A stretch of 8,463 bases of DNA from Candidatus Nanopusillus sp. (lineage in GTDB: Archaea; Nanobdellota; Nanobdellia; Nanobdellales; Nanobdellaceae), in NCBI GenBank assembly GCA_049414405.1, contig JBMSAQ010000033.1, forward strand, positions 1 to 8,463. Direction: 5' to 3'. Below, piece by piece: positions 2 through 8,463 of this stretch (position 1 is its first letter; each line of letters begins with the position of its first letter). The position numbers and the translations under genes were made by a program. The notes beneath the pieces were generated by a model. The model was not told where the DNA came from. It searched no databases and saw nothing but the letters and a program-made list of their open reading frames with translations.

Positions 2-3000
2 GGAAATTCTAATAAAACCATATATTTATGGTACGGAAACCCAAACGCTATAAGTTTAAGTAACGGAGATTTGGTTTTTGAATTCTTTGATGATTTTAAT
101 GGAAATACTTTAGATACATCTAAATGGACTGTGAATGGTTATGTGGGGTTTCGAGGAATTTTTTATAATGTTTCGAATTCAATACTTACAATATGGTCGG
201 ATAATAATTGGAGAATTTTAAGAATGAATAGAAATTTTGGACCGAATGATATGATAGTTATTGAGGTAAAATTTAGTAAAACAGCAGATAGTGATTGGCA
301 TACTAACTTTTTAATACAACATAATAGTGATAATAATAGGTTTGGATTTGTTGATATAGGATATTCTGGACTAAATATGGGGGTATATTATATGGTTAAT
401 AGTATAAATTATTATCCAAAAAATTTTGGTCTATTTTCTAATAATGTATGGTATATTTCGAGAATTATAAAAAAGAATAGTACCACTTTATATGTAGATG
501 CTTTAGCTTCAAATAGGACTCTTATTAATTCATATGAAACTATACAATCTGCTTGGTCATCTATAACATGGACTTGGGTTACAATACATGGTGGAAGTAC
601 AGGATATGTGCATGTCAGGTATGATTGGATTTTTGTTAGAAAATATACAAACCCAGAACCAATTGTATTTGTAGGTCCTGAATATATTGATTTTTATGTT
701 ACCATAATAACAAACAACCAAATTATTCCAACCCCGTCCCCATTCCAGCAACAAATAGCAATATGTAACGGAACAATAAATATCGGTCCTAATTTTGCTT
801 ATGTAAATAATCCAACATTATTTAATCAAATACACCCAGATGGTAGAAATGTATATTTTACTACGAATTATGGCGATATTCCCAACATATATTCATGGTA
901 TGCGGGACAATTTATACATGGAAATACACAATGTAAGATTTGGTGGATAAGATTAGATAATGAAATCCCAGCTAATGGTAATATTACGATTTATATAGCA
1001 ATATCTGACCTTAATACAAATTTTTATTCACTATATTATCCATATGTTGGTGCTTCTCCAAATGTATTTCCATCTAGACAATATGATAATGGTAGACATG
1101 TATTTATAGTATATGGATATTTTAATAATACGTTTGATGGTTGGACTGGACACATTTATGCCAGATCATACCCCACAGCTACTTCCTGGGGTATTCAAAT
1201 GTTATACAACAACTTTTATACGGGTACTTATATCTTACCCCCCAACAATGGAAATATTCCTTTAATATCTTTAATTGTTGAAGAAGCATGGTATTTTACC
1301 CATGGTGGACATGCCAACGTAATAGCATTATTTGGAAATACAAGTAATATAATTAATACTAATGTAATAAGTGGTGTTTCTGGATGTTACGCGCCAACAT
1401 CTCACTCATCCACATTTGTACAATTTCAATATAATAGAGGAGAATATACAAGAATAATGTCTGCAGTAACAAATAGAATATTAAGTAATACACATTTTGC
1501 ATATGGGGGTAGGACAATTTATTCATATTTAATACTTACCCCATCATATGTCGAAGCTGGGTATTATATTTATAATTTTAGTCAAGTATGGGTTCCATTA
1601 ACATTATTAAATACATATAGAACATATGTTCACGGATCTACTTATTCTTTTTTAGATTATAATCCTTTCCAACATGGCACATTGTTAATAGGTGCGGGGG
1701 ATTGTTACGATTCCACATCACACCAATATATACAGTGGGTAATAGCCAGAGCATATCCACCATATGGTGTAATGCCATCTTTTTCAATTATAAAACTATT
1801 AACACCCGATCTATTAATAAACACATCAACAAATTTCCAATTTAATGTATCTATATATAACCCATTTTCCGAATATGTAAATTATACGGTATATTTAAAT
1901 AGTTCTATATTAACAACTAATAATGTATCAGTAAATGCATTCCAAGCCTTAATAATTCCATATGAATTTCCTTATTTATTTAATCAATCGGGTGCTTATA
2001 ATTTAACTGTAATAGCATATGGACAAACCTCTAGAGTCACATCTATTTCAACTGCTATATTTAATATTCAATTAGATCAATTAAATGTAACTTTAGAACC
2101 TTATTATACTTATAATAACGTAAATTATACAAACCTTTATAATTCAAACTTAAGGATAACCTATTATTGCATGAGGCCAAATAACACCTTAATAATTTAT
2201 AATAATATAACAAATAGAACATTGCAAATTAATCTTTCATGTAATTACATACAAACAATAAATAATTTGATGGTTAACCTTACCCCAATTTTACAAAATA
2301 ATACTTTAAATCATATTAACGGATCGTTATTATATGGTAATCAATCATTTAGAAATATGAGCTTTATGCCATTATGGGGTACTTTAAATGTGACCTTATT
2401 TACAAATATTCCGGGAATTTCAATATATACATCACCATTAAGTTTAAATTATTCTATAAATGTAAGAGATGTTCTACCAAATGTTGTATGTAATATTACA
2501 TTATATGATAATAATACAATTGTGCAAACACATCAAACAACATTAACAAATGCTTCATCACCAACATATTCATGGACTATATCACAAGCACCAATACATA
2601 ACCTTAGGTGGTATATTTATTGCTATAATCCAGTAAATTTAACATATATTATTGATCAAAGAAATGGTACTTTTTACTATAATAGATTTGATTTTAGAAT
2701 GGAAGATAGTGGAAATATGCCATCAAATATATCTTATTCATTATCAATAGCATGTAATAATGATACTACTGTTTTTAGAAACCCAAATATGAATACTTAT
2801 ACGATATATGCATGGACTAATGATCAATGTGGCTTTATATTAGTATCACAAAATATACAGGGTATTGCTTATAGTATGGGTTATAGTACTAATTTATTAT
2901 CTAGATATGCATATCAATGGACTTTATGTCTATTAAATCCATCATTAGCTTACTTTAATAATCCATTAATAGGTCAAAATCAATATTTAGATACTTTAAT

Positions 3001-4198
3001 TGCTTTAGCAAATCCACAAGCAGGATGTTATTTATTAGGATCTTATTTATACTTATATTCATCTAATGTTTATTATGCACCAGTCCCTGTAAGAATTGGC
3101 GCTTTATATTCTATAAGAGTAAATAATACATTCTTAACAACAGTCCAAGGCCAACAACAACAAGCAATATCTATAGATAATCTTATAGCCCAATCAATTC
3201 TACAAAATAATAGAACTGTTTCAGTAATTGCTGAATTTCCAGTTATAAATGTTACAAACATATCTTCTAATGTATATCAATTAACAGTAACAGCTCCAGC
3301 AAGAATTTCTTCAGCAAATATAATTATATATTATAATGATACCCTTTATAGAAATTATACAATAAACTCTATAGGTACAAATAATTTTACTATCTTATTA
3401 ACAGAATTACCAGAAAATTATACATTTAACTTAACTAATTATATGATTATTACAATAACTTATGAAAATGGATTTGTTCAGCAAATGATTTATCCACCAA
3501 ATGTTCTTAATAATAGGATAACATTACCAGCATTTATGGTTTATTTAATAGCAATTTTCATATTATATGCATGGACTAGAGCATTTTCTTATTATCAGAG
3601 GTTAATAATAGCTGGATTTGGACTAGTTTTATTCTTAATACTTATGTCTATGGTTGTTCTTCAAACAACAGCTCCATTAGTTTTAGCTGCAGGTATCTTC
3701 TTCTTATTCTTATTAGATATGGCTTATACTGAATTTCTTTCTAGATTTACTGGAGAACACCCACTATTAAAACCTTTAAGTTTTTTAATAAGAATGTTTA
3801 TAATAATGACGTTTATAACAAGTGTTGTAGGAGTATTTTTCGGACCCTATGGAATTTATAATTTAGGAATACCTACCTTAAATGATTATATGTATGAAGT
3901 AAATAATACAATTAATAAAATAAATAATACAATAATACAAATGACTAAAAATCCATTCTTCTTCGTTATAGGTTTTATAGAACTTGCAATAAACTTAATA
4001 TATGCAATATCTTTAGGAATTAAGGGAGCAGGAGTATTTATTTCGTTATTTATAGTGCCATTAGCATCAATATTCGGACCTGCAGCAGTATCTGTAGCTC
4101 AAGCAATAGTATCAATAGTATATTTTGGAGCCATAATAGCCATATTGGTATATTTAACTTCACTAGTATTCTCGGCCGTTGGATTAAGACCTTTCTAA
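2..4198 (+). CDS. Giant secreted/membrane-anchored glycoprotein (adhesin or spike-like), 5'-partial. It has lectin modules, a sequon-dense stalk and a C-terminal ~7-TM domain.
   Basis: The frame of the 71..4198 ORF stays open back to nt 2. Nt 2-70 translate as GNSNKTIYLWYGNPNAISLSNGD, so the TTG at 71 is an ORF-caller artefact and the true start lies upstream of the window. The run ...YLWYGNPNA..S.. then VFEFFDDFNG..LD.SKW matches the junction usually seen between a DUF2341 domain and a ConA/LamG-like domain. A 4.1-kb uninterrupted ORF is very unlikely by chance in AT-rich DNA where stop codons are frequent. The stop is TAA at 4196-4198. Confidence 0.88.
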   Translation, partial: GNSNKTIYLWYGNPNAISLSNGDLVFEFFDDFNGNTLDTSKWTVNGYVGFRGIFYNVSNSILTIWSDNNWRILRMNRNFGPNDMIVIEVKFSKTADSDWHTNFLIQHNSDNNRFGFVDIGYSGLNMGVYYMVNSINYYPKNFGLFSNNVWYISRIIKKNSTTLYVDALASNRTLINSYETIQSAWSSITWTWVTIHGGSTGYVHVRYDWIFVRKYTNPEPIVFVGPEYIDFYVTIITNNQIIPTPSPFQQQIAICNGTINIGPNFAYVNNPTLFNQIHPDGRNVYFTTNYGDIPNIYSWYAGQFIHGNTQCKIWWIRLDNEIPANGNITIYIAISDLNTNFYSLYYPYVGASPNVFPSRQYDNGRHVFIVYGYFNNTFDGWTGHIYARSYPTATSWGIQMLYNNFYTGTYILPPNNGNIPLISLIVEEAWYFTHGGHANVIALFGNTSNIINTNVISGVSGCYAPTSHSSTFVQFQYNRGEYTRIMSAVTNRILSNTHFAYGGRTIYSYLILTPSYVEAGYYIYNFSQVWVPLTLLNTYRTYVHGSTYSFLDYNPFQHGTLLIGAGDCYDSTSHQYIQWVIARAYPPYGVMPSFSIIKLLTPDLLINTSTNFQFNVSIYNPFSEYVNYTVYLNSSILTTNNVSVNAFQALIIPYEFPYLFNQSGAYNLTVIAYGQTSRVTSISTAIFNIQLDQLNVTLEPYYTYNNVNYTNLYNSNLRITYYCMRPNNTLIIYNNITNRTLQINLSCNYIQTINNLMVNLTPILQNNTLNHINGSLLYGNQSFRNMSFMPLWGTLNVTLFTNIPGISIYTSPLSLNYSINVRDVLPNVVCNITLYDNNTIVQTHQTTLTNASSPTYSWTISQAPIHNLRWYIYCYNPVNLTYIIDQRNGTFYYNRFDFRMEDSGNMPSNISYSLSIACNNDTTVFRNPNMNTYTIYAWTNDQCGFILVSQNIQGIAYSMGYSTNLLSRYAYQWTLCLLNPSLAYFNNPLIGQNQYLDTLIALANPQAGCYLLGSYLYLYSSNVYYAPVPVRIGALYSIRVNNTFLTTVQGQQQQAISIDNLIAQSILQNNRTVSVIAEFPVINVTNISSNVYQLTVTAPARISSANIIIYYNDTLYRNYTINSIGTNNFTILLTELPENYTFNLTNYMIITITYENGFVQQMIYPPNVLNNRITLPAFMVYLIAIFILYAWTRAFSYYQRLIIAGFGLVLFLILMSMVVLQTTAPLVLAAGIFFLFLLDMAYTEFLSRFTGEHPLLKPLSFLIRMFIIMTFITSVVGVFFGPYGIYNLGIPTLNDYMYEVNNTINKINNTIIQMTKNPFFFVIGFIELAINLIYAISLGIKGAGVFISLFIVPLASIFGPAAVSVAQAIVSIVYFGAIIAILVYLTSLVFSAVGLRPF
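86..661 (+). other. ConA/LamG-like lectin (jelly-roll) module 1 within the giant ORF
   Basis: The module starts at FDDFNGNTLDTSKWTV and ends at YDWIFVRKYTNPEP. The opening F-DDF-G..L...W and the closing W..VRKY...EP are the usual boundaries of Laminin_G_3/ConA-like domains that follow DUF2341. This is motif recognition only. Confidence 0.6.
740..1015 (+). other. DUF2341-like module (second copy; the first lies mostly upstream of the window)
   Basis: The peptide FQQQIAICNG...HPDGRNVYFT...IYSWYAGQF...CKIWWIRLDNEIPANGNITIYIAIS matches the DUF2341 pattern as I recall it: an (r/q)xpItI start, dG.d.rF, yWie, a.vWVkvp.ipa.g..tIyiyy. Confidence 0.5.
1100..1768 (+). other. ConA/LamG-like module 2
   Basis: VFIVYGYFNNTFDGWTG ... 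YIQWVIARAYPPYGVMP repeats the opening (vF..y..F.dgW) and closing (W.i.R.Y.P) signatures of module 1. The giant protein therefore carries a duplicated [DUF2341-like][lectin] unit. Confidence 0.45.
1808..3520 (+). other. Beta-rich, sequon-dense, lysine-free stalk region (probably several Ig/CARDB-like domains)
   Basis: This covers aa ~580-1150 of the track ORF. It shows alternating hydrophobic/polar beta-strand patterns, for example FQFNVSIYNPFSEYVNYTVYLNSS...GAYNLTVIAYG. By hand count 36 of the ~46 N-X-S/T sequons lie here, and the region contains no Lys at all. Confidence 0.55.
3527..4180 (+). other. C-terminal polytopic membrane domain (~7 predicted TM helices)
   Basis: Hydrophobic stretches lie at aa ~1153-1172, 1177-1198, 1200-1216, 1236-1258, 1295-1316, 1319-1335 and 1342-1369. 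The only long polar loop (aa 1259-1294) carries two NNT sequons. That fits an extracellular position if the ectodomain is outside. Confidence 0.7.
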
Positions 4199-4199
4199 A

Positions 4200-4580
4200 A
4201 TGGATCAATTAAATGTTACAGCTATTGGAACTGAATTAATAAATTTAACAGATACAATAGTAAAGTTAATTACATTTAAAGATATTTATTCTTACATCCT
4301 TTTAGAAATATTAGTTATAGCTTTTTATATAGCTATGGAAAGTAATAGAGTAGAAAGTATTAAAACTTTGGTAATGGGTATAATGATTATTATGTGGATA
4401 TTTTTAATTGCAATATTAGCGCTTAATAGCATAGGATATATAAACATTACTGGACCACAGCTATATACTTTCTTTATGATGCCTACAGTATTAGTAACAG
4501 TAATAGCTTTAATGTTACCATTGTTAAGTTATTATAAAGGTTCTGGAGGCTCAGACTTTCAAAGACCTCCTTCTCTATAA
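4200..4580 (+). CDS. Small integral membrane protein (3 predicted TM helices, N-out/C-in)
   Basis: The ATG lies 1 nt after the TAA of the giant ORF (taaAatg). TM segments lie at aa ~29-46, 55-76 and 88-110. Sequons (NVT, NLT) sit in the N-terminal tail and NIT in the TM2-TM3 loop, both on the same predicted (outer) side. I recognised no family. Confidence 0.72.
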   Translation: MDQLNVTAIGTELINLTDTIVKLITFKDIYSYILLEILVIAFYIAMESNRVESIKTLVMGIMIIMWIFLIAILALNSIGYINITGPQLYTFFMMPTVLVTVIALMLPLLSYYKGSGGSDFQRPPSL

Positions 4581-5914
4581 TGATGAAGATTGAAACCTTA
4601 CAAGATATACGTAAATTAACATCTCAAGATCTTTTAAATGTTTTTAAAGAAACGAGGGTATTTCAGATTACTTTAAATAAAGTATGGGCTAATAGAACGG
4701 ATATTAAAAAAAGATTTATAAATCCAATAGATTTTATAGAGAGTACATCTAAAGATATAGCTGATGCTATTAGTGCGCCAATTGATGAGGATTATTGGTT
4801 AATTATTTTAGGAGAACCAGGTACGGGTAAATCAGCATTATCTATTGCTTTCTATAAATATATAATGAAGCATTTAGGTTATACAGATGAACAAATTAGA
4901 GAAAACATATATTTAGATGTATGTTATCTCCCATATGATTATATAGGTAGAATAAATTTACATAGTAAACAAATTCAAGAAAGAGGTCGTATATTTCCTT
5001 ATCCAATTGTATTAGATGAAGCTCATAATATGTTTGATTTATTTGCAGAAGGAGCTACGGGTATTGCGAGAAAAATACTTCAGAGAATTTTTGAAATTAG
5101 AGAATACAGATTAGCACACATAGTTAATACCCAAATACCAAGGCAATTAGCAAGTAGATCTAGAGAAAGATTTCATTCATTAATAGTTTTATGGAAAGAA
5201 CCAATATATATCGGAGAGGGTTCTACGCCACTTATGGAAGAATTGTATCTCAGTTATACCAAAAATATATTAAAAAAGGATATTGGTGATGGTAAAATTG
5301 GTTACTTTTTATGGGGGGCTTTTTACAATAAAGAAGTAACACATTCTATAATGAGATGGGTAATAAAACATCAAATTAGTATTGAAGAAGTTAGACCAAT
5401 TCTAAAGAAATTTACTCCAGATTTTTTCTTTCCTATGCTTTTATTATTACATGAATCTACAGAATTAAGAAAGGTTTATGCAGAAATCAAATTATATAAT
5501 AATTCTATAAAATCTTTATACGATGCTTTTGGAATTAAAGGCAGTAAGAAATCTACTTTCTTAAAAATATTAGTAGAATTAGGCAAAAATATAAATAATA
5601 TAAAAGATAAAAAAGATTCTAAAGGTAATTATATAGTAGATCCCTCAATTTCGGTAAGAGTTGATAATGAAAAAATAGTAGAAGCATTACAATATATAGG
5701 AAATGTATCTAAAGAATATGTGTATGAAGAATCTATAGATACTGATCAAAATATTAAAGTTGAAACTTATAAACGCATTAAAAGAATTATCCATGAAGAA
5801 TATTATACAAAAATAAAATCAATTCATCCCGATATTTATTTCTTCTTAAAGAATAACTATTATATAATTGAAAAAAGAGCTAAATTACATGCTGCTACCG
5901 GTTATCAACTTTAG
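4580..5914 (+). CDS. P-loop NTPase (AAA+-like / Zot-like ASCE ATPase) with an uncharacterised ~240-aa C-terminal region
   Basis: The start overlaps the upstream stop (TAATG, 4578-4582). Motifs seen are Walker A GEPGTGKS, Walker B PIVLDEAH, and then HIVNTQIPRQLASRSRERF (sensor-1 Asn/Thr plus an Arg-rich box resembling AAA+ box VII, or the TQ....R.. motif of Zot/pI-type ATPases). There are no TM helices. Confidence 0.9.
   Translation: MMKIETLQDIRKLTSQDLLNVFKETRVFQITLNKVWANRTDIKKRFINPIDFIESTSKDIADAISAPIDEDYWLIILGEPGTGKSALSIAFYKYIMKHLGYTDEQIRENIYLDVCYLPYDYIGRINLHSKQIQERGRIFPYPIVLDEAHNMFDLFAEGATGIARKILQRIFEIREYRLAHIVNTQIPRQLASRSRERFHSLIVLWKEPIYIGEGSTPLMEELYLSYTKNILKKDIGDGKIGYFLWGAFYNKEVTHSIMRWVIKHQISIEEVRPILKKFTPDFFFPMLLLLHESTELRKVYAEIKLYNNSIKSLYDAFGIKGSKKSTFLKILVELGKNINNIKDKKDSKGNYIVDPSISVRVDNEKIVEALQYIGNVSKEYVYEESIDTDQNIKVETYKRIKRIIHEEYYTKIKSIHPDIYFFLKNNYYIIEKRAKLHAATGYQL
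4811..4834 (+). other. Walker A (P-loop) GEPGTGKS
   Basis: Codons gga gaa cca ggt acg ggt aaa tca read directly from the sequence; this fits the GxxGxGK[ST] consensus. Confidence 0.95.
5006..5026 (+). other. Walker B IVLDEAH
   Basis: Codons att gta tta gat gaa gct cat give a hydrophobic strand followed by DE, about 60 aa after Walker A. Confidence 0.9.
5120..5173 (+). other. Sensor-1 / arginine-finger-like motif IVNTQIPRQLASRSRERF
   Basis: It lies ~35 aa after Walker B. The pattern hh.(N/T)(T/Q)......L.SR.R.RF resembles AAA+ sensor-1 plus box VII (compare RuvB ...ATT....L..PLRDRF and RFC ...LASRC). Confidence 0.55.
5871..5876 (-). terminator. Oligo-T (T6 on the minus strand) terminator candidate for the 138-aa membrane protein gene
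   Basis: A6 on the + strand at 5871-5876 gives CTCTTTTTTC on the minus strand, ~19 nt downstream of the minus-strand stop (5895-5897). It lies inside the NTPase coding sequence. Confidence 0.4.
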
Positions 5915-6311
5915 CTTTTAATTTTTGTTTTATTTTTATAGCTAAAAGATATATTAAATTAGCTGCAGGAATTGATAATGCATATACAATAACATTATAA
6001 TCTAAAATATATAAAAATGTCGCAATACTTGTAATAATTGCGCTATATATAATTAAATATATAATTAGTATAAATTGTGGTTTTTTTACATATTCTATTT
6101 TATATATTTCATTAGATAAGATTAATAAAGATAAATCATCATTAAGGTCTCCATAAGTTTTCTTAAGTTTTTCTTTTTTCTTATTATAATATGCATCAGC
6201 CATTCTATTGGATATATTCAATATTTTTTTTACAGCTTTATCACTGCTTAAAATAAGAGAAACTATAAAGCCTATGATTAAAGGAACCAACCATTGTAGA
6301 AAATATGCCAT
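5895..6311 (-). CDS. Small membrane protein (N-terminal TM, Lys-rich cytoplasmic linker, two C-terminal TMs)
   Basis: This is a 138-aa ORF. TM segments lie at aa ~4-22, 78-103 and 106-125. A TTTTTATA box on the minus strand sits 22-29 nt upstream of its ATG. The 3' end overlaps the NTPase gene by 20 nt. I recognised no family. Confidence 0.6.
   Translation of the reverse strand: MAYFLQWLVPLIIGFIVSLILSSDKAVKKILNISNRMADAYYNKKKEKLKKTYGDLNDDLSLLILSNEIYKIEYVKKPQFILIIYLIIYSAIITSIATFLYILDYNVIVYALSIPAANLIYLLAIKIKQKLKAKVDNR
5916..5937 (+). terminator. Oligo-T terminator candidate for the NTPase operon
   Basis: Runs T4, T5, T4 and T5 (cTTTTaaTTTTTgTTTTaTTTTTa) start 2 nt after the TAG at 5912-5914. 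Archaeal RNAP terminates at oligo-T tracts. The tract lies inside the Lys-rich C-terminus of the convergent gene. Confidence 0.55.
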
Positions 6312-6332
6312 ATATTATAAAGCACATAAAAG

Positions 6333-6340
6333 TATAAAAA
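6333..6340. promoter_or_regulatory. Shared TATA element in a 51-bp divergent intergenic region
   Basis: The + strand reads TATAAAAA at -30..-23 relative to the ATG at 6363. The minus strand reads CATAAA-TTTTTATA at -29..-22 relative to the ATG at 6311. Both spacings fit leaderless archaeal transcripts. Confidence 0.55.
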
Positions 6341-6362
6341 TTTATGGTTACATATATATAAT

Positions 6363-6824
6363 ATGACTACTTCAGAAGAATTTTTTAGGGAATTTTCATG
6401 GATTGATGAATTTATTTTAATTATACTCTATCTGAATGATAGAAAATTATCAAAACAAAAACTTAAGGAATTATTTTACTTTATCTATAAAGATCTAAAA
6501 GATAAAAATTTTTATGGATATTTAGAATTCTATATTAGTTTAAATACAAAAGAAATTTTAATATTTGAATCAAGTAGTGAAGCAGAATTGGATGATATAC
6601 TTTATAATTTATATTCAGAAACAGATCTTATAGATATAGATATTTTTGCAGATAATAGCATTATTTATCTTACAGATAAAGGTTATGACGTTGTAAAAGT
6701 TATTGTTAATGATCCTAAATATAAAGATGATATAAATCTTATTATGAAGATTATAAATCAATATAAAAATTTATCAGAAAAAGAATTATTTGCTTTGATA
6801 TTAGAAGATCTAAAATATAAATAA
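6363..6824 (+). CDS. Hypothetical acidic protein, possibly with a winged-helix domain
   Basis: This is a 153-aa ORF with a TATA box at the leaderless distance. The pattern IDEFILIILYLNDRKLSKQKLKELFYFIY ... SIIYLTDKGYDVVKVI resembles a helix-turn-helix plus wing (y.LT.KG). The call is by eye only and the family is unknown. Confidence 0.6.
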   Translation: MTTSEEFFREFSWIDEFILIILYLNDRKLSKQKLKELFYFIYKDLKDKNFYGYLEFYISLNTKEILIFESSSEAELDDILYNLYSETDLIDIDIFADNSIIYLTDKGYDVVKVIVNDPKYKDDINLIMKIINQYKNLSEKELFALILEDLKYK

Positions 6825-6865
6825 AATTATATATTTTCTTATAGTTATAATTTATAATTTATTAC

Positions 6866-6872
6866 TTTTTTT
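6866..6872 (+). terminator. T7 terminator candidate after the 153-aa gene
   Basis: acTTTTTTTaaaa lies 42 nt after the TAA at 6822-6824 and immediately upstream of the next promoter. Confidence 0.5.
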
Positions 6873-6883
6873 AAAATTTATAA
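6873..6883 (+). promoter_or_regulatory. BRE/TATA core promoter (AAAA-TTTATAA) of the 157-aa gene, leaderless spacing
   Basis: TTTATAA at 6877-6883 lies at -29..-23 relative to the A of the ATG at 6906 and is preceded by an A-rich BRE-like tract. There is no SD motif. Confidence 0.6.
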
Positions 6884-6905
6884 GTATAAAATTATAATAA
6901 TAGTT

Positions 6906-7379
6906 ATGGACCCTAAAATAAAGTTATTAATAGAATTAAAAGAAGATATAAAAAAATTTGAATCAGATCTTGGATTTTTAGGAGGAATTGCAGCAGGAGC
7001 TATAGAAGATTTAAAAAATAAAGTCTACAAAAGAGATGAGGATCTTTATGAAGTACTTAACTCTTTAAATAATATCGAACGTAGACTTACTATTACACTT
7101 GCATCAATGATTAAAAAAGCAAGTATATTGGCTTATTATAATTCTACGATGGGGGAATTAGTTCATCTTCTTAATAAATTAGGACCGTATCTTAATTATA
7201 TAAATAAAGCTATATCAAAAGCAATAGTTAGCTATAGAAATAATCCAACTTATGGTATAAGAAATGTATATAGTGCTTTAAGAGAAATTCAAAACTATGC
7301 AGTAGCTATGATGGAAGAAGTAGAAAAAATTATACGTGAGTATATAAATAAATATATAAGTTTCTATTTATTATCATGA
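6906..7379 (+). CDS. Hypothetical all-helical protein (paralog A)
   Basis: This is a 157-aa ORF with its own promoter and terminator. Heptad-like, helix-favouring composition runs throughout. It shows weak but colinear similarity to the next gene. Confidence 0.65.
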   Translation: MDPKIKLLIELKEDIKKFESDLGFLGGIAAGAIEDLKNKVYKRDEDLYEVLNSLNNIERRLTITLASMIKKASILAYYNSTMGELVHLLNKLGPYLNYINKAISKAIVSYRNNPTYGIRNVYSALREIQNYAVAMMEEVEKIIREYINKYISFYLLS

Positions 7380-7408
7380 CATAACAACCCCAAGGAATAA
7401 ACATTTAA

Positions 7409-7434
7409 TTTTTGCAATACTTTTATTACTTTTT
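7409..7434 (+). terminator. Oligo-T terminator candidates after the 157-aa gene
   Basis: T5 at 7409-7413, T4 at 7421-7424 and T5 at 7430-7434, lying 30-55 nt after the TGA at 7377-7379. Confidence 0.5.
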
Positions 7435-7490
7435 AAAAAAGAAAAAGCAGTATTATATAAATTATAAAGCTAAAAGTTTGAATATGTCAT

Positions 7491-7501
7491 AAATTTTATA
7501 A
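7491..7501 (+). promoter_or_regulatory. BRE/TATA core promoter (CATAAA-TTTTATAA) of the 145-aa gene, leaderless spacing
   Basis: TTTTATAA at 7494-7501 lies at -30..-23 relative to the ATG at 7524. It is nearly identical to the minus-strand promoter at 6333-6348 (CATAAATTTTTATA) and similar to the one at 6873-6883. Confidence 0.6.
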
Positions 7502-7523
7502 ATTTAAAAGTAGATGTTTTATT

Positions 7524-7961
7524 ATGATGTGGGGTTATCTAAATAAGATAGGATCTATTGAAGAAGAAGTTGAAGAAGCTAGAGAAGATTTAGAAGCATT
7601 ATATCTTATTATAGATTCAATTAAAAGAAGTATAGAAACTAGAAATTATACAAAGGAAGAACTTATAGAAAAGCTTTATAGGATACAAAGATATACAGAT
7701 ACATTAAGCTTATCTCTTAGATTGGTATATAGAAAGATACAAAAATATGATCCGATGAATATAGCTACATTAAATGTTATAGGTGGTCTTTTGAATGATA
7801 CTTTTAGGATAAGTATGGCTTTTGGAGAAATATTAAAATACTTTTGGAAAAATCCTGTACAAGACATAGAAAATCTATATAGAACTTCAGTATGGAGTTT
7901 AGAAATTTTAGAAAAAGCTAGAAGGGATTTGGCTATGATTATAGGAAAAAGAATATTATAA
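7524..7961 (+). CDS. Hypothetical all-helical protein (paralog B)
   Basis: This is a 145-aa ORF. The promoter spacing favours the first ATG (7524) over the second (7527). It is colinear with the 157-aa protein (see findings). Confidence 0.65.
   Translation: MMWGYLNKIGSIEEEVEEAREDLEALYLIIDSIKRSIETRNYTKEELIEKLYRIQRYTDTLSLSLRLVYRKIQKYDPMNIATLNVIGGLLNDTFRISMAFGEILKYFWKNPVQDIENLYRTSVWSLEILEKARRDLAMIIGKRIL
7946..7950 (-). terminator. T5 (minus strand) terminator candidate for the methyltransferase gene
   Basis: A5 on the + strand at 7946-7950 lies 13 nt downstream of the minus-strand stop (7963-7965) and inside the 145-aa gene. Confidence 0.3.
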
Positions 7962-7962
7962 A

Positions 7963-8463
7963 TTAATAATTAGATACAAAAATAAGAGTCCACGTTTTCT
8001 TTTTTTCGCCTTTTTTCTTTTCCATAGATTTTTTCTTTTCTAATTTTTCAATTTTATAGTTTTTTAATATATCTTTAATAAGATTAAAAGCTTTATCATC
8101 AACTTTTAACAAAAATTTTCCTTTAATTTTTGTTAATATGTTTGCCATATCTCTGATATCTTTAATAGTAAATGTAATCCCATAATAATTATCAGATCTA
8201 TCTGGATAAGGAGGGTCTAAATAAAAAACTGTTTTTTCACTATCATATAATTGAATAACTTTTCTAAAATCTAAATTTTCGATTATTATATCCTGCCAAT
8301 TTTTTGTAAAATCTAAAATAGCCCTTATTTTTTTTCTAAAGGCTCTTGCATCATTTCTTTTTGGATTAATTACACAACTAAATCCTTTTTTAGGTCCACC
8401 CATAAAAGATGTGTTTACTAAATAGAAAAATAAAGCTGCAGCTTCTAATTCACCTAAATTTCT
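7963..8463 (-). CDS. N6-adenine DNA methyltransferase, D12 class (Dam-like), 5'-partial (N-terminal AdoMet-binding half is off the window)
   Basis: The minus-strand frame is open beyond the track's Met at 8403 to the window edge (RNLGELEAAALFFYLVNTSFMGG...). The layout matches Dam-family proteins as I recall them: AALF.YL(N)...F.G, then ~55 aa, then (V)FYLDPPY (catalytic motif IV), then ~80 aa including a hydrophobic strand (GKFLLKVDD) and a basic tail. Confidence 0.85.
   Translation of the reverse strand, partial: RNLGELEAAALFFYLVNTSFMGGPKKGFSCVINPKRNDARAFRKKIRAILDFTKNWQDIIIENLDFRKVIQLYDSEKTVFYLDPPYPDRSDNYYGITFTIKDIRDMANILTKIKGKFLLKVDDKAFNLIKDILKNYKIEKLEKKKSMEKKKGEKKKTWTLIFVSNY
7995..8016 (+). 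terminator. Oligo-T terminator candidate for the 145-aa gene, embedded in the convergent methyltransferase gene
   Basis: T4 at 7995-7998, T7 at 8000-8006 and T6 at 8011-8016 on the + strand. These are the complement of the Lys-rich tail (EKKKSMEKKKGEKKK) of the minus-strand gene. Confidence 0.45.
8206..8217 (-). other. Catalytic DPPY motif (motif IV) of the N6-adenine methyltransferase
   Basis: The + strand ataaggagggtc has reverse complement gac cct cct tat, which encodes D-P-P-Y. Confidence 0.9.

Follow-up and report, generated by a model that had tools for sequence, protein, structure and literature searches.

The window analyzed here, an 8,463-nt stretch of DNA from Candidatus Nanopusillus sp., most likely belongs to a viral genome akin to that of Nanoarchaeotal virus 1 (NAV1, MN056826.1), existing either free or integrated in a Candidatus Nanopusillus genome. 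Three adjacent genes in the window, encoding a giant surface protein, a small membrane protein, and an ATPase, very probably belong to a NAV1-like viral block, and most likely form the distal end of a conserved structural/late gene block. An earlier note on this DNA had proposed them as a candidate undescribed morphogenesis or surface-apparatus cassette similar to mobile-element modules. This reading is partly supported: the cassette and its mobile nature held up and its undescribed status did not, the named analogies are resemblances of logic, and the inference of stoichiometry is weak. The features are as follows.

2–4198, + strand: giant surface glycoprotein, 5'-truncated, homologue of NAV1 NV1_37 (ORF; best named match)
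5–690, + strand: module 1, the end of DUF2341 followed by a LamG/ConA-like region (Pfam; Laminin_G_3 in homologues)
692–1804, + strand: module 2, a divergent second DUF2341/LamG-like unit (host and virus homologues, internal alignment)
1032–1800, + strand: swapped hypervariable cassette within module 2 (differences between the window and contig L010)
1805–3520, + strand: conserved beta-rich, sequon- and Cys-rich stalk (cross-lineage alignment)
3512–4195, + strand: C-terminal polytopic membrane domain, ~7 predicted transmembrane (TM) helices, N-out/C-in (hydropathy, alignment)
4200–4580, + strand: 126-aa 3-TM protein, N-out/C-in (ORF, hydropathy, position upstream of the ATPase)
4580–5914, + strand: 444-aa AAA+-like ATPase (AF2, Foldseek, hhalign, phrog_5484)
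4811–4834, + strand: Walker A, GEPGTGKS (G78, G81, K84, and S85 invariant)
5006–5026, + strand: Walker B, IVLDEAH (D146 and A148 invariant)
5126–5176, + strand: sensor-1 NTQ (5126–5134) plus an Arg-rich segment (N183 and Q185 invariant, R197 nearly invariant)
5895–6311, − strand: 138-aa 3-TM protein closing the conserved block (its 3' end overlaps the ATPase 3' end by 20 nt)
7963–8463, − strand: Dam-type N6-adenine DNA methyltransferase, truncated where the window stops, a context gene outside the cassette (Pfam, PHROG)

The reading frame of the giant is already open at base 2 and extends beyond the 5' end of the window. Its TAA stop (4196–4198) is followed by a single A (4199) and the ATG of the small membrane gene (4200–4202), whose own TAA stop (4578–4580) shares a base with the ATPase ATG (4580–4582; TAATG). 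Both junctions, and the tight packing they reflect, are exactly as the earlier note described. Nonetheless, when 63 pairs of neighboring same-strand genes on three related contigs were examined, 63% had gaps of 2 nt or less. Because such packing is a genome-wide style, the junctions alone do not single out the trio, and the matched stoichiometry previously read from the stop/start overlap is a weak inference. Both NAV1 (52%) and the related contig L005 (55%) have a homologue of the 138-aa protein at the corresponding place. The methyltransferase matched Pfam MethyltransfD12 (E 1.8e-10) and phrog_56 (E 1e-26), and its full-length version on JGI contig Ga0209740_1000052 (L010), which is 97% identical to the window, comprises 303 aa (TIGR00571, E 5.8e-22).

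The viral assignment is carried by comparison with NAV1, to which the window is ~76% identical in DNA over positions 1825–6202. NAV1 holds the same trio in the same order, namely NV1_37 (1311 aa) followed by proteins of 128 and 439 aa, with amino acid identities of 64% for the giant (C-terminal 800 aa), 61% for the small TM protein, and 76% for the ATPase. A 13-gene block around the trio is collinear with NAV1, so that what had been proposed as a three-gene unit is the distal part of a larger conserved block, and its supposed mobile-element origin is specifically viral. Nor is the module new, as these genes are already present in the published NAV1 genome, annotated as hypothetical. What the three genes make up is not an unknown cellular apparatus. 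The two genomes differ in that DNA identity is limited in level and covers just part of the window, and in their downstream accessory genes. They also differ in the N-terminal half of the giant, as in NAV1 the host-like module 2 is missing and DUF2341 matches only weakly.

Co-conservation and synteny of the trio, which the earlier note had proposed to test, were found in six sequenced lineages, where the junction gaps range from −4 to +6 nt. Among metagenome contigs, the small membrane gene immediately precedes the ATPase gene in 19/19 viral-clade loci, and the conserved C-terminal domain of the giant is present in all 14 loci with enough upstream DNA. Flanking genes on related contigs comprise ORFans and genes for a Dam methyltransferase, Hjc, TBP, a BrxL-like ATPase, and a glycosyltransferase, and one related lineage carries a tyrosine integrase fragment. 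No capsid protein was recognized among the related contigs.

The giant protein is supported as a predicted glycosylated, lectin-type, membrane-anchored surface protein, in agreement with its earlier description as a lectin-type ectodomain on a polytopic membrane domain. The full-length version (1513 aa, on L010) begins with an N-terminal Sec-type signal peptide, which lies within the ~106 residues missing from the window ORF. Pfam DUF2341 was detected on the window fragment (aa 2–44, E 1.2e-12) and on the full protein (E 4.3e-31), and Laminin_G_3 (PF13385) adjoins DUF2341 in homologues. The ectodomain contains 40 N-x-S/T sequons in 1105 aa, compared with 22.6 ± 4.0 (maximum 35) in 1000 shuffled sequences, and its composition (Lys 0.9%, Glu 1.4%) has the character of an acid-stable protein. 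The stalk had no match in a Pfam search; together with the TM domain it is 48%–67% identical across the six lineages, with a mean column identity of 73%. Hydropathy indicates about seven hydrophobic segments in the last ~225 aa; this domain also has a conserved predicted cytoplasmic loop, WTRAFSYYQR (3572–3601), and NNT sequons in predicted external loop 4 (3881–3910).

Module 2 aligns with module 1 in a repeat-like manner, and was not found in the NAV1 or L005 giants. It shares 59% amino acid identity with a duplicated domain of Nanopusillus acidilobi Nps_03075 and 69%–72% nucleotide identity with three adjacent host genes (Nps_03075 and its two neighbors), and tblastn matched it to two Sulfolobales virus proteins, namely the rudivirus SMRV1 ORF16 "structural protein" and an SMV1 giant protein (27%–37% amino acid identity). 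These proteins share the module-2 domain with the giant, but they lack the conserved stalk and 7-TM domain and are not followed by a small TM protein or an ATPase. When compared with the otherwise identical contig L010, 231 of 233 nucleotide differences are concentrated in positions 1032–1800. We consider the giant probably a virion adhesin because of its signal peptide, DUF2341, sequon enrichment, and acid-stable composition, because module 2 has homologues in virion proteins of a rudivirus and SMV1 as well as in surface proteins of the host, and because variation is confined to the 1032–1800 cassette while the membrane half is strongly conserved.

The kinship of module 2 with chromosomal N. 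acidilobi surface proteins also fits a cellular operon, in which the block would serve attachment of Nanopusillus to its crenarchaeal host rather than a virus. Likewise, an NCBI contig of 113 kb that bears the label Candidatus Nanopusillus sp. carries the exact ATPase and a 140-aa protein, and the chromosome of Nanobsidianus stetteri (Nst1) encodes a homologue of the ATPase. However, the entire 13-gene block is collinear with a viral genome, and no housekeeping genes were found in the related contigs. The N. acidilobi module proteins, which do sit among housekeeping genes, come with neither the 7-TM domain nor the small TM partner or the ATPase, and Nst1 has the ATPase only. We therefore regard a cellular operon as highly improbable.

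The 126-aa protein has three hydrophobic segments by hydropathy, as the earlier note had it. All three of its sequons fall on predicted external segments, and a predicted cytoplasmic motif, ME(S/A)xRVE, is conserved; no match was found in Pfam, PHROG, or NCBIfam.

The third protein has no hydrophobic segments, and its Walker A, Walker B, and sensor NTQ motifs are invariant family-wide, in line with the earlier assignment as a P-loop NTPase. It does not fall into any cellular housekeeping family. The Arg-rich segment after sensor 1 resembles the AAA second region of homology. Using the AF2 model (pLDDT 85.6), Foldseek returned only AAA+/RecA cores, led by RFC and other AAA+ proteins, plus ATV ORF286, a top BFVD structural match; the ~190-aa C-terminal domain had no PDB fold match. 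In hhalign, the ATPase scored 93.5% against SSV1 B251 and 95.7% against the B251 family profile (E 8.6e-9, 135 columns spanning the pre-Walker A helix to sensor 1), compared with 0.4%–1% for negative controls, and 16 of 19 ATPase family members matched phrog_5484, the "DnaA-like replication initiation protein" family that includes SSV1 B251, ATV ORF286, APSV1 ORF290, and APOV1 ORF247. These profile comparisons group the ATPase, as a divergent relative, with the fusellovirus B251 "DnaA-like" AAA+ family, which the earlier note had not considered. Pairwise sequence searches miss the relationship, and tblastn against a phage/archaeal-virus collection gave no match. The ATPase and B251 are both core genes that stand last in a run of same-strand genes in a virus of crenarchaeal type. 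The ATPase nonetheless differs from B251 in its length (444 versus 230–290 aa), with an extra N-terminal helical region and the C-terminal domain, and in lying directly after membrane proteins, whereas B251 lies beside an integrase.

In fuselloviruses, B251 belongs to the absolute core of genes and is "implicated in replication and packaging" (PMC9608457). Its kinship with the ATPase would also suit a simpler account, in which the ATPase is merely a viral replication initiator or helicase loader, adjacency reflects genome compaction and conserved gene order, and the trio is no functional unit. Weak PHROG matches to DnaC-like loaders and clamp loaders, the RFC-led Foldseek list, and the equally tight packing elsewhere are consistent with this. 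In addition, paralogues without membrane partners occur on the Nst1 chromosome and on contigs L020 and L057–L060, one solitary group being a clade of ~32% identity, so the ATPase is not strictly dependent on its two membrane partners. Against it, linkage of the trio in the viral clades is absolute even though ATPase identity falls to 40% and downstream neighbors vary, these genomes encode a second candidate replication ATPase (BrxL-like), and B251 is implicated in packaging too and is carried by the satellite pSSVx, which must itself be packaged (PMC9608457). On balance, we consider this account unlikely, and a membrane-coupled role for the ATPase is put forward tentatively, at somewhat less than even likelihood.

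The gene logic, a polytopic membrane protein followed by a small membrane protein and an ATPase, is also similar to that of a conjugation-like or Ced-like DNA-transfer apparatus (VirB6-like, VirB2/VirB3-like, and VirB4/HerA-like) on an integrative plasmid. Pfam gave a weak DUF87/HerA match (E 0.004) for one distant member of the family, and Foldseek ranked HerA and FtsK low among its matches. However, the proteins had no Pfam match to TrbL/VirB6, VirB4, TraG, or FtsK, the 444-aa ATPase groups specifically with B251-type AAA+ proteins, and no relaxase or coupling protein was found among the related contigs. NAV1 was reportedly recovered from virus-enriched metagenomes, which also counts against a transfer apparatus, and we give this reading very little credence.

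Similar arrangements occur in other archaeal viruses. SSV1 VP4 (C792) is a glycosylated terminal fibre with small TM proteins after it (PMC9608457); as proposed for the giant, it is an attachment protein of large size that is anchored in the membrane and N-glycosylated at multiple sites, and overlapping genes for small TM proteins (B78, C166) come after it. Yet homology to VP4 is undetectable (hhalign 0.5% or lower), VP4 lacks DUF2341/LamG modules, and it is described merely as having transmembrane helices (PMC9608457), compared with the seven or so predicted in the giant. The giant, the 126-aa protein, and the 140-aa 2-TM protein had no detectable homology to SSV1 VP4, B78/C166, or VP1. The pleolipovirus HRPV-1 (VP3, VP4 spike, ORF6/7 membrane proteins, and VP8 NTPase) also has overlapping genes in the order spike, multi-TM protein, NTPase in a membrane-virus genome; however, VP8 matches the ATPase only at Walker B (hhalign 0.7%), and tblastn of the giant against the phage/archaeal-virus collection gave no pleolipovirus match. 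In PAV1, the ConA-like lectin adhesins ORF676 and ORF678 alternate with small membrane genes in a same-strand block that includes the P-loop protein ORF375, but ORF375 matches the ATPase solely over a 21-column P-loop, and tblastn found no sequence match between the giant and the two adhesins. The analogies named in the earlier note are thus resemblances of logic and not membership, because the ATPase is B251-type and matches VP8 and ORF375 only at the P-loop.

Taken as a whole, we lean slightly toward a NAV1-like virion adhesin, its membrane partner, and a genome replication/packaging ATPase. The giant would enter the host membrane via its Sec signal peptide, become heavily N-glycosylated, be anchored by its seven-helix C-terminal domain, and serve as the attachment protein (terminal fibre or spike) of a virion that we infer to be lipid-containing. 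Its two lectin-like DUF2341/LamG modules may bind surface glycans, with module 2 a putative host-related cassette whose swapping by recombination would alter binding specificity. The 126-aa protein may co-assemble with the conserved membrane domain of the giant, and the B251-type ATPase, possibly docked on the conserved cytoplasmic loops of both membrane proteins, would act on viral DNA at the membrane assembly site, where it would start replication, fill the nascent particle with the genome, or do both. While the function of its trio is inferred from sequence, the block itself belongs to a known virus lineage.

The best named match of the giant surface protein is NV1_37 of Nanoarchaeotal virus 1 (NAV1; genome MN056826, 35,629 bp), in which genes for proteins of 1311, 128, and 439 aa follow one another in the same order as the three genes of the window:

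2-4198, + strand, gene for the giant glycoprotein, open from base 2 and running past the 5' end of the window, with a TAA stop at 4196-4198
4200-4580, + strand, second ORF, a protein of 126 aa
4580-5914, + strand, third ORF, an ATPase of 444 aa

The window matches NAV1 DNA at 76.5% over 4.4 kb (blastn; window 1825-6202), the proteins of the block are 52%–77% identical to those of NAV1, and 13 genes are collinear between NAV1 (170-16034) and L010, a near-identical relative of the window (JGI contig Ga0209740_1000052; 2976-16655). A NAV1-like virus would further be expected to have a circular genome of ~35 kb, to be associated with virions, and to have a host among the Nanoarchaeota. Contigs related to the window carry ORFans, Dam and C5 methyltransferases, Hjc, TBP, a BrxL-like ATPase, and a glycosyltransferase, and none of them encodes housekeeping genes. 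Based on homology and collinearity with NAV1, together with this gene content, we assign the locus to a NAV1-like virus, of whose structural or late module the block very probably forms the distal part. The mobile-element origin suspected in the earlier note was thus borne out, while its suggestion that the module is undescribed was not, as the block is already present in the sequenced NAV1 lineage, where its proteins stand without functional annotation. Relatives of the ATPase are few: clustering at 90% identity leaves 68 groups, and a set of 1.84 billion proteins yields no more than 25 representatives at 50% identity. Where these relatives bear an organism name, the label is Ca. Nanopusillus or Ca. 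Nanobsidianus.

The window is AT-rich (21%–32% GC), and its gene junctions, TAA-A-ATG followed by an overlapping TAATG, are exactly those claimed from the first reading of the sequence. The matched stoichiometry read into them is not implied by the junctions alone, since 63% of same-strand gene pairs in these genomes have gaps of ≤2 nt and tight packing is the rule. The complete giant gene on L010, which is 97.4% identical to the window, encodes 1513 aa, so ~106 N-terminal residues are missing from the window; a Sec-type signal peptide (MIKKFLKLFGIFFLIFFSYNVYS|LD) lies in this absent part. Another contig, L002, is 100% identical to window 3244-8463. At its far end, the ATPase gene overlaps tail-to-tail by 20 nt (window 5895-5914) with an opposite-strand gene for a 138-aa protein with three transmembrane (TM) segments, which is kept at the corresponding position in NAV1 and in the related genome L005. 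Further downstream are two members of a helical protein family of ~140-157 aa (6906-7379 and 7524-7961; also L010 21334-21762 and L005 6131-8029), of which each genome holds several weakly similar copies (22%–38% identity) and which has a sub-threshold match to a HEPN-type domain in Pfam. They are followed by a gene for a Dam-type N6-adenine methyltransferase (7963-8463, - strand), truncated by the 3' end of the window and 303 aa long in L010. Just upstream in the block, a second giant gene (L010 6229-9603, 1124 aa; NAV1 3430-9678, 2082 aa; related contig L016 589-5433, 1614 aa) is highly variable among lineages and without a family match; in L010, its product is predicted to lack TM helices, contains 19% charged residues, and carries few sequons.

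An integrated state of the virus is possible. The exact ATPase and a 140-aa protein have NCBI records on a 113-kb contig that bears the name Ca. Nanopusillus; in the contig of the window no integrase was observed, and tRNA scans of six related contigs yielded no credible att-site tRNA. One related contig, L020, holds a 211-aa fragment of a tyrosine integrase (phrog_9208, E 1.4e-17) for which phmmer matched neither the SSV1 nor the APOV1 integrase. The fragment (11331-11966, - strand) comprises only the C-terminal part and is separated by ~640 nt from a divergent second copy of the ATPase family (12610-13791, + strand), an arrangement that could be the junction left by an integrase that splits its own gene upon integration. 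A Ca. Nanopusillus metagenome-assembled genome contains two different NAV1-like elements (ACO2ON_01540 and ACO2ON_01710), with ATPases only 53% identical, which are viral contigs binned together or else several proviruses. NAV1-like contigs also encode a homolog of the TATA-binding protein (L005 12486-13082, - strand; L020 10617-11213, + strand; best Pfam TBP E 7.6e-27).

The order of giant, small TM, and ATPase genes is kept in six lineages, with ATPases 40%–100% identical to that of the window and junction gaps of -4 to +6 nt. In a metagenome scan, the small TM gene lay directly upstream of the viral-clade ATPase gene at 19 of 19 loci, and the C-terminal domain of the giant was present upstream at all 14 viral-clade loci with enough upstream DNA, so that the trio is co-conserved and syntenic within the viral clades, as the idea of a module would have it. 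An apparent seventh trio in L022, a contig with a distant ATPase relative, was rejected because the alignment revealed its upstream protein to be an unrelated P-loop protein.

The glycosylated, lectin-type ectodomain and polytopic membrane domain proposed for the giant find support in its predicted features. DUF2341 was matched at its N terminus well beyond the Pfam gathering cut-off of 23.4 bits, both in the window fragment (E 1.2e-12, 48.5 bits) and in the full protein (E 4.3e-31, 107.6 bits). A putative LamG/ConA-like region follows, detected as Laminin_G_3 (PF13385) adjoining DUF2341 only in homologs, which places the protein, as judged from its domains, among the DUF2341/LamG surface proteins of archaea. 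Module 2 (window nt ~692-1804), a divergent further unit of this type, aligns weakly to the first (module 1). The ectodomain has 40 N-x-S/T sequons (22.6 ± 4.0 in shuffled sequences) and nearly lacks Lys and Glu, and the last ~225 residues form about seven hydrophobic helices. Given the signal peptide, the predicted topology would be N-out, C-in, which would place both NNT sequons of the membrane domain in a single long external loop and its most conserved loop, WTRAFSYYQR, in the cytoplasm. The 126-aa protein has three hydrophobic segments; its three sequons are all predicted to face outward, and its conserved charged motif, ME(S/A)xRVE, to face inward.

Conservation along the giant is uneven. 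The C-terminal 800 aa, comprising the stalk and membrane domain, are 48%–67% identical in all lineages. Of the 233 positions that differ between the window and L010, 231 fall within window 1032-1800 (L010 11349-12150), where the two diverge by about 30% over ~770 nt, with indels, and are essentially identical over the remaining 8.4 kb. The segment corresponds to the LamG-like portion of module 2, and the clustering of differences indicates a putative recombinational cassette swap in the second lectin-like module. Among viral lineages, L016 and L020 have module 2, which NAV1 and L005 lack; more distant relatives of the module include ORF16 ("structural protein") of the rudivirus SMRV1 and a giant SMV1 protein. 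It shares 59% amino acid identity with a domain duplicated in Nps_03075 of Nanopusillus acidilobi and 69%–72% nucleotide identity with three adjacent genes that lie amid housekeeping genes on the N. acidilobi chromosome (CP010514; copies at 6304-7075, 8387-9208, and 12715-13529, in genes of 590, 1052, and 1215 aa). These genes look like a cluster of host surface-protein paralogs with a domain in common with the virus. Given the collinearity with NAV1, we consider it very unlikely that the window's own block is a cellular adhesion operon. A conserved base with a host-related tip that recombines is the pattern expected of a receptor-binding protein, and on balance the giant is probably the particle's attachment protein, glycosylated and anchored in the membrane, with the 126-aa protein as its partner there.

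The Walker A, Walker B, and HIxNTQ sensor motifs of the ATPase are invariant over 19 diverse relatives (residues G78, G81, K84, S85, D146, N183, and Q185), and its AlphaFold model is confident (pLDDT 85.6). Its family was less readily found: a tblastn search of 50,697 phage and archaeal virus records and two IMG/VR scans gave no match, profile searches of PDB returned P-loop matches only, and single-sequence matches in Pfam, NCBIfam, and PHROG were all below threshold. Foldseek aligned the model with generic AAA+ and RecA cores, ATV ORF286 ranking third among viral models. One of the weak single-sequence matches, phrog_5484, was found by 16 of the 19 family members (best E 1.1e-8), and we judged it real because of this recurrence and of the hhalign comparison with B251, the "DnaA-like" AAA+ ATPase of fuselloviruses. 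The ATPase family profile matched SSV1 B251 at 93.5% over 124 columns and a profile of seven B251 family members (SSV1, SSV2, ASV1, SSVRH, ATV, APSV1, and APOV1) at 95.7% (E 8.6e-9, 135 columns, starting ahead of Walker A and extending through sensor 1), with negative controls at 0.4%–1% (M13 pI 1%, an archaeal AAA+ ATPase 0.4%, HRPV-1 VP8 0.7%). A relationship with M13 pI (Zot-type) was rejected on its value. Profile comparison places it with the viral B251 family, and the P-loop ATPase groups with no housekeeping family; on this evidence it is a divergent relative of B251 with an added C-terminal domain of ~190 aa. The full-length architecture of B251 (~230-290 aa with a common C-terminal region) is not shared, the alignment ending at about residue 199 of the 444. 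The C-terminal domain had no recognizable fold match, and a winged-helix DNA-binding C terminus ("LxxIG" motif) was dropped, as the model of aa 262-444 (pLDDT 71) matched nothing in PDB (best E 0.65). [quoted passage not shown]

What the ATPase does next to two membrane proteins can be read in two ways. We tentatively suggest a membrane-coupled role, in which it would work at a site defined by the membrane proteins, starting replication of the viral genome and/or loading that genome into the particle. A purely replicative role unrelated to the neighboring genes seems somewhat unlikely; partnerless ATPase paralogs do exist, in a chromosomal clade of Nanobsidianus stetteri and in a clade of ~32% identity, and viral-clade copies adjoin the small TM gene throughout. 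One stand-alone copy of the ~32% clade is the one close to the integrase fragment of L020. The N. stetteri homolog (APJZ01000001, 10001-11317; 53% identity) lacks membrane partners, is flanked by an AsnC-type regulator and small ORFans, and has altered motifs (GGSGAGKS, and a Walker B of DDAYH instead of DEAHN); it may represent a viral gene undergoing domestication or decay.

The closest known counterpart of the trio is the same block in NAV1, and membership of the ATPase core in the B251 family is the sole family link beyond NAV1 that can be demonstrated. The pleolipovirus VP4/ORF7/VP8 block, the lectin, membrane, and ATPase genes of PAV1, and SSV1 VP4-B78-C166 resemble the trio in logic only. 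For the first two, the likeness drawn in the earlier note therefore stands as regards the logic of gene order and fails as regards ATPase homology: hhalign gave 0.7% for pleolipovirus VP8 (18 columns, Walker B only) and, for PAV1 ORF375, 73% over 21 columns confined to the P-loop. Profile comparison did not find the fusellovirus hallmarks VP1, VP4, B78, and C166, and neither the giant nor the small TM protein was accepted as a homolog of SSV1 VP4, B78, or C166 (three hhalign comparisons, with values of 0.5%, 0.3%, and 0.2%). Upstream of the window, L010 encodes two low-charge proteins (5281-5703, the 140-aa NV1_40 homolog, and 9642-10004, 120 aa; K+R+D+E about 3%), each with two hydrophobic helices and a polar, sequon-bearing linker between them, as in fusellovirus VP1/VP3. 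Both are candidates for capsid or envelope proteins; for the NV1_40 homolog, the likeness to VP1 is one of architecture only (hhalign 5% for VP1, 1.8% for VP3). A conjugation-like apparatus, which would also pair an ATPase with polytopic membrane proteins, is highly improbable: neither a VirB4/HerA-type ATPase nor a VirB6/TrbL-type polytopic protein was matched in Pfam at E ≤ 0.1-1, and Foldseek ranked AAA+ proteins first for the ATPase and HerA only 28th.

The window therefore represents a further member of a known, barely characterized virus lineage and not a new kind of system. To our knowledge, viruses of Nanoarchaeota and other DPANN archaea are known nearly exclusively from sequence. A more far-reaching and, taken as a whole, unlikely reading is that NAV1-like viruses may be a separate lineage of membrane-containing viruses that infect DPANN archaea, in which the 7-TM-anchored giant lectin adhesin, its 3-TM partner, and the B251-derived ATPase with its new C-terminal domain form one membrane-embedded portal machine. 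Its receptor-binding cassette would be exchanged, through recombination, with surface proteins by which the nanoarchaeal host acts on its own crenarchaeal host. Such a portal, if real, would couple attachment or budding to genome movement across the membrane. Three features deserve attention from specialists: the link to B251, the anchoring of a giant lectin-type adhesin by a 7-TM domain, and the swapped cassette shared with the host. The placement with B251 would be the first demonstrable gene link of NAV1-like viruses to the gene pool of fuselloviruses, bicaudaviruses, and guttaviruses; the giant, as the likely attachment protein, offers a concrete target for virion proteomics; and the swapped, host-shared cassette gives a testable approach to viral recognition of a cell that is itself attached to another cell.
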